DNA from: a virus
Lineage: Duplodnaviria > Caudoviricetes
IMG/VR virus record: IMGVR_UViG_3300012344_000013
Span: 32,001-96,000 of that record
DNA: 64,000 nucleotides
Direction: 5' to 3' (one strand)
The notes under the pieces: model-generated
The model's database searches: none
What the model was told of the DNA's origin: nothing
The model's input: only the letters and a program-made list of their open reading frames with translations
Shown: piece after piece, positions 29,719 through 33,541 of the stretch
How the letters are laid out: each line of letters begins with the position of its first letter
Numbering within the stretch: the first letter of the stretch is position 1
Position numbers and translations under genes: made by a program

Positions 29719-31263
29719 ATGAATTCCTATAAGAAAGCTTCTTTTTTAGACGATTTTGAATTGCCAGAGATAACACATGATACTATAAAAAGTGAGCTAG
29801 TAAAGTTAGGAAGAGTACATTCAGTTCAGAAAAGGAAGACAATAGAAGGTCTTCCTTTAACTGAACGTCTTGAATATATTTCTAATGAAGTATATAAAGT
29901 TTTAGGTAGATATAAAAATTTCGTTAAGATAATTGATAATTATGCAGATTTAGATAAATATATTGATTTAGCAATTGATAAGGTTTATTTAGCATTTGAT
30001 ACAGAAACTAATAATAGTCTTGACCCTTTAACATGTAAATTGATGGGTCTATGCTTATATATTCCAAATACTAAACCTGTATATGTTCCAATAAATCATT
30101 GTAAACCAGGTACTGATGAATTATTAAGTAATCAAGTGTCTATGGAAGAAGTTACTAAAATATTCAAAAAATTAAAGAATAGTAATGTTAAAATGGTATA
30201 CCATAATGGTAAGTTTGACATTAGGGTTTGCTATAATACAACTGGTGTGTATTTACCTATATATTGGGACACTATGATAGCTGCTCAGTTATTAAACGAG
30301 AATGAATTAGCTAGACTTAAATATCAATATAAAACTCATGTAAATCCAACATTAAATCAATATAACATAGAAAAATTATTTACAGGTTTGCCTTATGCTT
30401 GGATTCCAGTAGATATATTTGCATTATATGCGGCAATAGATGCTTTTGATACTTATAATCTTATGTTAGAGCAGAAGAATGCTTTTGAAAAAGAAGAATT
30501 AGATAAACTTTATAATGTATTCATGAATATTGAGATGCCTATAGTAAGTATAACTGCAAAGATGGAAGATACAGGGGTATGTATTGATTTAGATTATCTT
30601 AATAGATTATCTAATAAGTATACTGTAGGATTAGAAAATGCTACTAAGCAATTAAACGAAATATTAGAACCGTATTCAAAACAGATATCTTATTATCAAA
30701 GTTTGGGTAAATTAGATAAACCAGTTAATTTTGAATCATCACAACAATTACAGATATTGATGTATGATATATTAAAATTAGAGCCCATAGAAGATAAAGG
30801 CCGTTCTACAGCAAAAGCAGAATTGAAAGCTTTTGATATACCATTTACAAATGCCCTATTAGATTATAGACATTGTAGTGTACTTATGAAAACATTTATA
30901 AAACCAACTCCCGAGCGAATTAGTACTAGAGATGGTAAATTACATACTAACTTTAATCAGATGGGTGCAGAAGAAAATAATGTCCGTTCTGGTAGATTTT
31001 CAAGCACTAATCCAAATTTACAGAATATTCCAAGTAAATCTCAAGAAGTACGTCTGATGTTTGAAGCTAGCGAGGAAATAGTTGATTGTAGTTTCAATAA
31101 TAATTGTATAGAATTAAGTACATTTGACGATGTTGAGACTGATATGGGTTGGAAAAACATAAAAGAATTGAATATAGGAGATATTATATTAAGTAACAAT
31201 TGTCAACTAGTTATAGAAAATATAAGTATAGTTGATAATATAGCTAAGATATTTGTAAAATAA
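29719..31263 (+). CDS. polA: Family A DNA polymerase, N-terminal part (3'-5' exonuclease, thumb, start of palm) ending in a Hint-like domain
   Basis: 'AFDTET', 'HNGKFD', 'YAAID', 'SGRFSSTNPNLQNIP'. Confidence 0.92.
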   Translation: MNSYKKASFLDDFELPEITHDTIKSELVKLGRVHSVQKRKTIEGLPLTERLEYISNEVYKVLGRYKNFVKIIDNYADLDKYIDLAIDKVYLAFDTETNNSLDPLTCKLMGLCLYIPNTKPVYVPINHCKPGTDELLSNQVSMEEVTKIFKKLKNSNVKMVYHNGKFDIRVCYNTTGVYLPIYWDTMIAAQLLNENELARLKYQYKTHVNPTLNQYNIEKLFTGLPYAWIPVDIFALYAAIDAFDTYNLMLEQKNAFEKEELDKLYNVFMNIEMPIVSITAKMEDTGVCIDLDYLNRLSNKYTVGLENATKQLNEILEPYSKQISYYQSLGKLDKPVNFESSQQLQILMYDILKLEPIEDKGRSTAKAELKAFDIPFTNALLDYRHCSVLMKTFIKPTPERISTRDGKLHTNFNQMGAEENNVRSGRFSSTNPNLQNIPSKSQEVRLMFEASEEIVDCSFNNNCIELSTFDDVETDMGWKNIKELNIGDIILSNNCQLVIENISIVDNIAKIFVK

Positions 31264-31282
31264 TTATAGGTGGTGGGTATTA

Positions 31283-32410
31283 TTGAAATCGATAAAAGTA
31301 AAAAAGCATTATATTATAGTTGGTGGAGATTTTAGTGCTCAAGAGCCTAGAATTTTAACAAGTATAACTAATGACCCTACATTTCTTGAGGTATTTAGAA
31401 CCGGTAAAGACCCTTATGCTACTATTAGTTCTCTTGTATTTAAGAAATCGTATTGGGAATGTATGGAACATCATGAAGACGGTACTCCTAATCCTGATGG
31501 AGCATTATTACGGAAAAGGGCAAAAACTATTCTACTTGGAATTACCTATGGAATGGGACCAAAACTTATGGCTAGTAATTTACATGTAGATATAGATGAA
31601 TGCGTTGAAATATTAAATGAGTTTTTTAAGACTTTTCCAAATATAAAATCATTCACGGAATATAATATAAATTCTGCTAAAGAATTAGGTTATGTAGAAG
31701 ATTACATGGGGCGGCGGCGTCATTTACCTGATGCTCAATTAGATGAGATTAAAGTACAAGCTAATAAGGAAATTTATACTGATTGTGATTTATTTTTAGA
31801 TTGTACTACTTCTGATTGTAAGATAAATATAAAAGATAGTGAAGCTACTAATAAATGGACAAATATTTATTTAGAGCAATATGCTCATAAGGGTTTCAAA
31901 GCTAAGACACAATTCAAAGAATTAGCTAAAAAAAATGATATAGTAGTTAGAGATAACGGCGCATTTATATCAAAAACTATGACACAATGTACTAACGCAC
32001 GCATTCAAGGGTCCGCTGCGACGCTAACAAAAAAAGCTATGATATGTATTGATGGAAACGAAGAATTAAATAAGCTAGGTTTTAGATTACTTATTCCAAT
32101 TCATGATGAGCTTTTAGGAGAATGTCCTATAGAAAATGCAGATAAAGTAGCTAAGTTACTCTGTGAGACTATGATTAGTGCTGGTAAGCCGGAACTTTCT
32201 GTTGATATGTCTGTAGATGCATATATAGTAAAACACTGGTATGCTGATGAAATATCTAATACTATTTACAATGACTATCACAAACGTATAGATAAAGGTG
32301 AATTAAGAGAAGATGTTATAGAAGATATTCATAAAAATCATTGCGAATTTTCTAAAGATACTATAATATCTATGTGCGATGGAACATTTGACATTTTAGG
32401 AGATGTATAA
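31283..32410 (+). CDS. polA: Family A DNA polymerase, C-terminal part (motifs A, B, C)
   Basis: DFSAQEPR, RKRAKTILLGITYG, 'N.RIQGSAA', IHDEL; TTG start with AGGTGG RBS. Confidence 0.92.
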   Translation: MKSIKVKKHYIIVGGDFSAQEPRILTSITNDPTFLEVFRTGKDPYATISSLVFKKSYWECMEHHEDGTPNPDGALLRKRAKTILLGITYGMGPKLMASNLHVDIDECVEILNEFFKTFPNIKSFTEYNINSAKELGYVEDYMGRRRHLPDAQLDEIKVQANKEIYTDCDLFLDCTTSDCKINIKDSEATNKWTNIYLEQYAHKGFKAKTQFKELAKKNDIVVRDNGAFISKTMTQCTNARIQGSAATLTKKAMICIDGNEELNKLGFRLLIPIHDELLGECPIENADKVAKLLCETMISAGKPELSVDMSVDAYIVKHWYADEISNTIYNDYHKRIDKGELREDVIEDIHKNHCEFSKDTIISMCDGTFDILGDV

Positions 32411-33541
32411 ATGCAATTTAACATAAGAGAGCTTAAAGATATTACATCTAAGTTAAATATAGCTATAGAGAAATCTAAGATAAATCCTAAAGCAGGTTGG
32501 ATTGAATTTATTTCTAATGAGGATAAGCTTGAGTTGATTGTATCAAATTATGATTATTATGTAGCTATAAAATTAAATAGCAATAATAGCATTTCTGAAA
32601 GTATTCATGCTACTATATCTTCAGATACATTTATACCTTTAATTTCTAAGTTAGATTCTGATATTATTGATATTAAAGAGAGTGGCAATGCTTTAGTAGT
32701 ATCTACTGAAAAAAGTTCATATACATTTCCTATGATAAAAGAAATGGGCAAAACTAAAGTATTAGATAAAATTCCATTTAATTATAATATGGGTTATATC
32801 ACCAATATTAAAGGCGAAGATTTAGCTAGTATAGCAAAATCTAATACAAAAGGATTATTAGATTCTATATTTGTTAAAGAAATACAGCAATATATTTATA
32901 TTGATAACATAGGTGCAATAACATTTACTGAGAATATTTATATAAATAATTTTGAAAAACCTTATGATGTAGATTTTAAGTTTTTGCTTAATTGTACTCA
33001 ATCTAAATTATTAGATATATTTAATGATATTGATTTTGTCAGCATTTATAGTAATTTAGATGATTATGATAGCAGTTATAAAATATCACTGGTTTCTAAT
33101 AATATTACTATTATATTTAAGGTTGCTTCGAAAAAGATAACAGATAAATATCCTGCTATTAAATTAAGAGATATTGCAAAGAATGTATCAAATACGCACA
33201 TTGTTTTAGATAAAAAAGTATTAGATAAAGCTTTATCTAGGCTTATGGTTTTTGATAAGAAATTTGATATAACTGATTTAACTTATAGTAAAATAGTATT
33301 TGGGATTGATTCGTTGAAATTAGTTTCAATAAAAAGTAATAATTTTGAAGAAATAAAGTATATAAGTAGCTCCAATACATTTGATAGAGAATTTATAATA
33401 AGATTTGCTGATTTAGTGAAGCAATTAAAAGCAATTACTTCTAAAGAAATAGATATTAGCTACGGTAATCAACCGGCTTTAGCAATAAATGGAAATGTGT
33501 TACAACTCATACCTGAAGTTAAAATGATAGGAACTGTGTAA
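32411..33541 (+). CDS. dnaN: Sliding clamp (DnaN-like beta subunit)
   Basis: 376 aa; 'MQFNI..LK', 'KYP' and 'L.KAL.R' patterns; adjacent to polymerase. Confidence 0.65.
   Translation: MQFNIRELKDITSKLNIAIEKSKINPKAGWIEFISNEDKLELIVSNYDYYVAIKLNSNNSISESIHATISSDTFIPLISKLDSDIIDIKESGNALVVSTEKSSYTFPMIKEMGKTKVLDKIPFNYNMGYITNIKGEDLASIAKSNTKGLLDSIFVKEIQQYIYIDNIGAITFTENIYINNFEKPYDVDFKFLLNCTQSKLLDIFNDIDFVSIYSNLDDYDSSYKISLVSNNITIIFKVASKKITDKYPAIKLRDIAKNVSNTHIVLDKKVLDKALSRLMVFDKKFDITDLTYSKIVFGIDSLKLVSIKSNNFEEIKYISSSNTFDREFIIRFADLVKQLKAITSKEIDISYGNQPALAINGNVLQLIPEVKMIGTV

Follow-up and report, generated by a model that had tools for sequence, protein, structure and literature searches.

The window analyzed here, a stretch of 64,000 nucleotides from the tailed phage record IMGVR_UViG_3300012344_000013, harbors a family A DNA polymerase that is encoded by two genes, termed ORF1 and ORF2 (open reading frames 1 and 2; Table 1). 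According to the translations, both are located on the same strand and in different frames. Across ORF1 and ORF2 the Pfam cut-offs for PF01612 and PF00476 are exceeded. Here, ORF1 carries the 3'-5' exonuclease domain, and the DNA_pol_A profile is divided between both genes, with profile positions 5–157 in ORF1 and 148–381 in ORF2. In the alignment, Asp16 of motif A, motif B and the His-Asp-Glu of motif C form invariant columns. Thus, the single polypeptide of a family A polymerase is replaced by two ORFs, each with its own signals.

The break is located at the tip of the palm β-hairpin preceding motif A. At this point ORF1 adds a tail of 66 residues and ORF2 a leader of 9 residues, so that the tail, a stop codon, a spacer and the leader stand where contiguous relatives have only about three residues. 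In the named, distant phages Clostridium CS02, Dp-1 and phiCTP1 (~33% identity) the polymerase is a single gene. A preliminary description of this DNA had already placed the break in the palm before motif A, which agrees with the divided Pfam profile and with the hairpin site seen in comparison to contiguous relatives. It had furthermore assigned a ribosome-binding site and a TTG start to the C-terminal half. Both are present, and the start is kept in the related locus L169. Rfam gave no match on the whole window or on the junction, therefore no intron or RNA family is present, and the 19-nucleotide gap contains no endonuclease gene, as had been stated before. A scan for promoters and terminators revealed nothing above chance, and no terminator lies between the halves.

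Table 1. Features of the split polymerase locus (positions within the window) and genes found between the polymerase halves of related loci.
Feature	Position or locus	Strand	Remarks
ORF1, N-half of family A DNA polymerase	29719..31263	+	514 residues; TAA stop 31261-31263; DNA_pol_A_exo1 at residues 70-248; DNA_pol_A profile 5-157 = residues 306-459
Acidic outgoing segment, residues 449-463, after last polymerase strand	31063..31107	+	Disordered in fold of tail alone; β-strand in model of fused relative
Hint-like N-lobe, residues 464-514	31108..31260	+	Six-stranded β-domain
Spacer, 19 nucleotides	31264..31282	+	Ribosome-binding site AGGTGGTG at 31268-31275
TTG start and basic leader, residues 1-9	31283..31309	+	Net charge +4; corresponds to return strand of mini-Hint module in fused relatives
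Motif A strand	31310..31351	+	Catalytic Asp16 at 31328-31330; intact in window
ORF2, C-half of polymerase	31283..32410	+	375 residues; TTG start; motif A; motif B ~31511-31558; motif C 32102-32110
Cassette segment with separate history	31075..31305	+	DNA identity to closest relative L004 drops over exactly this stretch
Gap gene, GIY-YIG-type	L048, L056, L062		Motif read from sequence
Gap gene, HNH-like	L011		Motif read from sequence
Gap gene, endonuclease-like, 433 residues	L006		Repeats and motif read by eye
Gap gene, small helix-turn-helix gene	L005
Gap remnant of L006-type gene	L004		Only first codons (N-terminus)

The junction is not restricted to this record. L169, an independent assembly with ~90% DNA identity, displays the identical TAA, 19-nucleotide spacer (with one substitution), TTG and frames, without any indel. 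Furthermore, the 120 nearest protein clusters (47–86% identity) were classified. About 50 are N-halves broken at the same point and ending in a homologous tail, four of which also contain a genuine intein at another place. Another ~43 are contiguous or without the module made up of tail and leader, and 25 end at a different break further upstream. Homologous tails reach polymerases of only 35–42% identity, and states with and without the module are interspersed among close relatives. Related loci in IMG/VR were recovered with an alignment as query, a single-protein query having given none. Since L169 shares the junction and about 50 of the 120 clusters are split alike, these comparisons indicate that the split is not an assembly error, a possibility which the preliminary description had kept in mind.

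A third recurrent break, just after Gly-Arg-Phe-Ser-Ser, is present in about 25 clusters (P0023, P0026, P0037 and ~22 others). Here, the upstream ORFs read into a conserved extension of eight residues of the K-Q-N-W-G-F type, and this break could represent an intron or another cassette.

If the ribosome shifted frame or bypassed the gap of 19 nucleotides, a single chain might still be produced; alternatively, the locus might be a dead pseudogene. The two frames differ by +1, and related genes seem to be read with short hops at other places, which would fit the former. However, ORF2 is preceded by a strong ribosome-binding site and its start is conserved, and in the relatives the distance between the halves varies from about 20 nucleotides to 3 kb with whole genes inside. 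Because of the differing frames and this range of gap lengths, joining by read-through or frameshifting was rejected. Against a pseudogene speaks that both halves are under strong purifying selection, with a ratio of non-synonymous to synonymous substitution rates (dN/dS) of 0.06, and that this is the only polymerase of the genome: the virus record of 126,576 bases has direct terminal repeats and contains neither a second PolA nor a PolB. Taken together, a single chain or a dead gene is very improbable.

The tail of ORF1 has been likened in the preliminary description to the N-terminal blocks of Hint domains, and profile and fold comparisons point to the same family. A tail profile (15 sequences, A4) compared to the PDB sequences ranked a bacterial intein-like domain (E 3.9e-4) ahead of the gp41-1, DnaB and RecA inteins, and inteins make up most of the list. 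An exhaustive hmmsearch of 1.84 billion proteins with this profile gave 745 matches, comprising polymerase tails as well as unrelated PT-HINT, Hint and Intein_splicing proteins at E 1e-15 to 1e-10. Using hhalign, the tail matched the start of one PT-HINT domain with a probability of 90% (E 1.5e-6). Profiles were required for detection; with the single tail sequence, Pfam reported nothing but PT-HINT at E 0.13, which is below threshold.

AlphaFold2 folded the tail alone into a six-stranded β-domain with a predicted local distance difference test (pLDDT) score of 83, the first 12 residues being disordered. In an exhaustive structural search with this model the ranks 1–7 are inteins (Z 4.6–5.9, root-mean-square deviation (rmsd) 1.5–2.1 Å over 48–52 residues), and Cys464 aligns to intein position 1, although it is not conserved in the family. 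Foldseek against the PDB likewise places inteins at ranks 1–8, with E values of 0.05–0.3, which are not significant alone. Canonical mini-inteins and split inteins, such as the gp41-1 intein (PDB 6riz/6qaz), are the best neighbors in structure and sequence, with a Z score of 5.9, an rmsd of 1.7 Å over 52 residues and 27% identity for the tail. Profile, hhalign and fold thus agree in relating the tail to the N-terminal lobe of Hint/intein domains. From the Hint fold only this N-lobe and a return strand are found, and no intact intein is present at the exact split site among the longer homologues or the hits of the tail profile.

The residues needed for splicing are missing. The Cys at position 1 is present in only two of the 15 aligned tails, and the tail ends before the expected place of the block B Thr-x-x-His, with no conserved His in the aligned tails. 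Neither block F nor block G is found in the module, which comprises ~75 residues in comparison to more than 120 in known inteins. The leaders of the C-halves lack a terminal His-Asn; their last residue is basic and is followed by Tyr or His rather than Cys, Ser or Thr, typically by Tyr and then by hydrophobic residues. Since these residues are lacking, canonical splicing is impossible for tail and leader, in agreement with the preliminary description. A covalent joining of both halves by an unusual trans-splicing chemistry could at best be connected to the Cys of the window tail, which occupies the equivalent of intein position 1 and is also kept in L169. However, the rarity of this Cys, the small module and the loss of the block B His, blocks F and G, the terminal Asn and the +1 nucleophile make such a reaction extremely improbable.

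Two observations on inteins in related loci are added here. In the distant split relative L047 (L047:7822-7880) the leader ends with His-Asn followed by Cys, which equals a canonical intein C-junction, and this Cys occupies a position where some contiguous relatives carry Cys. It may be a trace of an ancestral intein, or chance. In P0031, P0053, P0061, P0096, P0243 and P0257 a genuine intein is located ~25 residues upstream within the N-halves, between Gly-Arg-Phe-Ser and a Cys which replaces the usual Ser. These inteins possess the terminal His-Asn, some contain an HNH or LAGLIDADG endonuclease, and the dead Hint tail is still present at the C-terminal end.

The leader of ORF2 is equally characteristic. 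Every C-half starting just before motif A contains a conserved basic stretch of the K-T-R-T-R-Y type, which reads K-V-K-K-H-Y in the window. The net charge of 76 tails is on average -7.0 (99% negative) and that of 31 leaders +3.4 (97% positive), and both the fold-defining residues and the pattern of charges persist in polymerases with as little as 35% identity. How tail and leader belong together is revealed by fused polymerases of 903–1014 residues, which are found in the same gene neighborhood at 31–52% identity and contain the Hint-like domain in frame, followed by a linker of 6–17 residues, the basic strand and motif A. Because these fused forms carry both, tail and leader belong to a single module that is inserted at the hairpin tip. 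The split genes are broken in the loop after the last strand of the Hint-like domain.

The module of a fused relative was modeled with a pLDDT of 86, and its outgoing (residues 9–16) and return (residues 79–86) segments both form β-strands of eight residues. Its alignment to inteins starts at their residue 1 and extends almost to their C-terminus. The top nine structural matches are all inteins (Z 4.9–6.8), the best four reaching Z 6.2–6.8 and an rmsd of 2.0–2.4 Å over 59–63 residues. Based on this model, the module is read as a Hint domain reduced to the N-lobe and a C-terminal strand. At the window locus the upstream intein piece is present, and the downstream piece is reduced to one strand of ~8 residues. 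The earlier proposal that the acidic strand of the tail pairs with the basic leader fits to both strands of the model and to their opposite charges.

Further evidence for the origin of the module comes from the gap between the halves. In several relatives it contains genes of the kinds listed in Table 1, of which the ORF of L006 was the sole one scanned with Pfam, giving no significant family. DNA identity between the window and L004 amounts to ~90% on both flanks and to 33–65% exactly over the cassette segment. A similar decoupling is visible for the proteins: body and tail are 94 and 33% identical between the window and P0001, 98 and 29% between P0039 and P0041, but 63 and 83% between P0039 and P0101. 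Since both identities are decoupled, the module has been exchanged between polymerase genes. Such an exchange would be expected for endonuclease-driven homing with co-conversion, a mechanism taken from established knowledge. Among the relatives four states are seen together: module absent, fused, split with endonuclease and split without endonuclease. The module of the window is probably a relic of a mobile cassette, consisting of the module and a free-standing homing endonuclease, from which the endonuclease was lost.

The gap of L006 (L006:5584-8514) shows a further peculiarity, as its endonuclease-like gene is itself interrupted by an IS605-type TnpB gene (PF01385/PF07282), which is a mobile element nested inside a mobile element.

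Many tail-bearing relatives display a second interruption, which is located within motif A. Among 164 scanned loci, at least 16 of the 24 distinct ones with a tail have motif A interrupted right after Asp-Phe/Tyr-Ser; none of the 126 loci without a hit of the tail profile shows this. The pattern consists of a Ser codon, a stop codon, 0–3 nucleotides and a second Ser codon, resulting in an insert of 6–9 nucleotides, after which the conserved motif A resumes in whichever frame results (for example L030:7683-7710, L049:7541-7565, L048:8261-8285, L056:8342-8366, L005:5882-5905, L011:8590-8620 and L100:5780-5805). In L011 a Glu codon takes the place of the Ser codon (GAA TAG C GAA), and some of the downstream parts have no start codon. 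The match between take-off and landing codons points to a ribosome that hops a short distance across the stop. Cases with an in-frame TAG could instead reflect code reassignment. Here, L100 (L100:5790-5850) appears to read TAG as Gln, since its in-frame TAG codons fall on conserved Gln positions; the stop after the take-off codon is TGA in this locus. The motif A of the window is uninterrupted.

It has to be considered whether the mini-Hint domain fulfills another task in fused and split polymerases alike, for example binding of a replisome partner or of DNA, the break being incidental. This would be in line with the in-frame fused forms across 31–52% identity and with a domain that folds confidently alone. 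Nevertheless, no signal of a partner or ligand was found, the presence and absence of the module alternate among close relatives, and the module travels together with endonuclease genes, which renders this explanation quite unlikely. For an atypical cleavage or regulatory role, offered as an alternative in the preliminary description, no evidence was found.

Selection on the tail was estimated from dN/dS. Over all loci one usable close pair was available, with values of 0.47 for the tail and 0.11 for the body; the window and L169 were then used as a pair, giving 0.16 for the tail (20 non-synonymous and 18 synonymous differences) in comparison to 0.06 for the body, with an identical leader. The substitution pattern thus indicates that the tail is under purifying selection in a lineage without the endonuclease. 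In addition, a complex of the tail (residues 450–514) with the C-half was predicted. Its interface score ipSAE of 0.54, against 0.00 for the best of three controls, lends weak support to binding: the mark is passed by 58 of 80 solved complexes and two of 110 mismatched pairs, but the range up to 0.60 among those passing holds only seven of the 80 solved complexes and both passing mismatches. The runs share at least 90% of the contacts, and the pLDDT of the partner is at least 84 in comparison to 62 with an unrelated protein.

Both lines of evidence bear on the question whether a mobile element left tail and leader behind as inert remnants, with the halves assembling through the polymerase fold alone. 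A module that moves between genes like selfish DNA, changes faster than the body and is missing from many close relatives that work without it (41 of the 120 nearest clusters) would be compatible with such a neutral scar. However, the constraint on the tail persists although the lineage has lost the endonuclease, the fold-defining residues and charges are kept over large distances, and the leader is conserved in all split forms. Selection and complex prediction favor a working clasp, and a neutral scar is considered unlikely.

The interpretation to which we give moderate confidence is that both polypeptides assemble non-covalently, helped by the relic of a mobile cassette. The sole DNA polymerase of the phage would be made as two chains of ~59 and ~43 kDa. 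The N-half would end with an acidic outgoing strand and an intein N-lobe of ~50 residues, the C-half would open with the basic return strand. After translation, the basic leader would most likely add to the acidic Hint lobe as the missing strand, resembling the docking of the C-piece of a split intein on its N-piece. This strand addition would restore the palm hairpin and bring the catalytic Asp of motif A into position. With every splicing residue absent, the halves would not become joined by a peptide bond. The cassette, made up of module and endonuclease, is common among related gut and rumen phages and would invade this site in their polymerases, the endonuclease having since been lost in this phage.

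Several points weigh against this interpretation. Halves of one fold may assemble without any handle, and for the NrdA of phage Aeh1 the tails are reported not to be needed for heterodimer formation (PMC3045599). The module also occurs in unsplit polymerases, therefore it cannot have originated to dock the products of a split gene. Furthermore, structural Z scores of 6–7 are by themselves only moderate, in both pairs the polymerase body changes more slowly than the tail, and the complex score passes only weakly. From the "domesticated" docking remnant postulated earlier, the docking stands as plausible, with the complex prediction adding a little to it, whereas "domesticated" was too strong for part of a mobile cassette; it would be more apt to say that part of a selfish cassette was retained.

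More tentatively, the relatives may be combined into a "cut-and-clasp" cassette family. Here, a non-splicing Hint module of intein origin together with interchangeable endonucleases would enter the motif A region of phage polymerases and split the gene, which would be kept working by non-covalent strand complementation. Most copies would add the stop-initiated hop gap of 6–9 nucleotides, and the window would represent an end state free of endonuclease and gap. This generalization is possible but somewhat doubtful.

Among known systems, Aeromonas phage Aeh1 is the nearest functional precedent. Its NrdA is split into NrdA-a and NrdA-b by the endonuclease mobE (Crona et al., 2011; PMC3045599). 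As reported there, the insertion makes an upstream C-terminal and a downstream N-terminal tail, which are absent from contiguous homologues and were proposed as interaction domains; no RNA or protein splicing takes place, and the tails are essential for activity (PMC3045599). Common to both cases is an essential, replication-related gene cut by a mobile endonuclease with tails that contiguous homologues lack. In contrast, the tails described here are a reduced Hint domain with a putative function, and they sit in a family A polymerase; unsplit versions of the module exist as well, and the window no longer has the endonuclease.

The nearest genomic precedent are the "fractured genes", in which a split intein and a free-standing homing endonuclease are found in phage replication genes (Dassa et al., 2009; PMC2677866). 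In the model of Dassa et al. the loss of the endonuclease is a later step, and this precedent includes an SbcD-like case with 25 and 9 inserted residues and no intein (PMC2677866). A PolA case is not mentioned in that paper. The conserved break site, the intein-type piece on the upstream ORF and, in the relatives, the endonuclease ORF in the gap are shared. However, the fractured inteins are complete and predicted to splice, whereas here an N-lobe and one return strand are left without any catalytic residue, and the free-standing endonuclease between the halves is present in relatives but absent from the 19-nucleotide gap of the window. With canonical and split inteins the module has in common that the N-piece is acidic and the C-piece basic; it differs from them in lacking a conserved nucleophile, block B, His-Asn and the +1 Cys/Ser/Thr, and in having about half the size.

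The T4 genes 39 and 60 with mobA, reportedly treated by Bonocora and colleagues in 2011, offer a third comparison. A study on topoisomerase 39/60, mobA and the bypass of gene 60 covers relatives with a split gene but no cassette (Manning and Atkins, preprint, 10.1101/2022.08.31.505936). The likeness consists in a mobile endonuclease cassette which repeatedly enters one site of a replication gene and splits it. As in gene 60, many relatives of the window also have, shortly after the break, a coding gap that opens with a stop codon. Different are the host gene, the Hint-derived module and the length of the gaps in the relatives, which is 6–9 nucleotides instead of 50; endonuclease and gap are both missing from the window. 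No paper was found that describes this arrangement of a split polymerase and a half-Hint. New here is that the tails are a recognizable, catalytically dead half-Hint, that the host gene is a family A polymerase and that four states coexist.

The polymerase genes are located within a replication module that comprises a helicase loader, DnaB, primase, SSB, a resolvase and a UvsX-like recombinase. Directly 3' of the polymerase lies a gene of 376 residues (32411-33541), the position of which is kept in all related loci. No PHROG or Pfam family was assigned to it, and its location makes it a candidate for a clamp or processivity factor.

If the proposed assembly is true, it would show in a natural case what becomes of an intein after the loss of splicing: its fold would be retained to hold two gene products together non-covalently across the break. 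One series of observable states would then connect inteins and split inteins with "fractured genes" and genes split by endonucleases. The acidic/basic pair of ~50 and 9 residues could serve in protein engineering as a compact, splice-free handle for heterodimerization. Moreover, a large group of gut and rumen phages would replicate with a family A polymerase made of two pieces.

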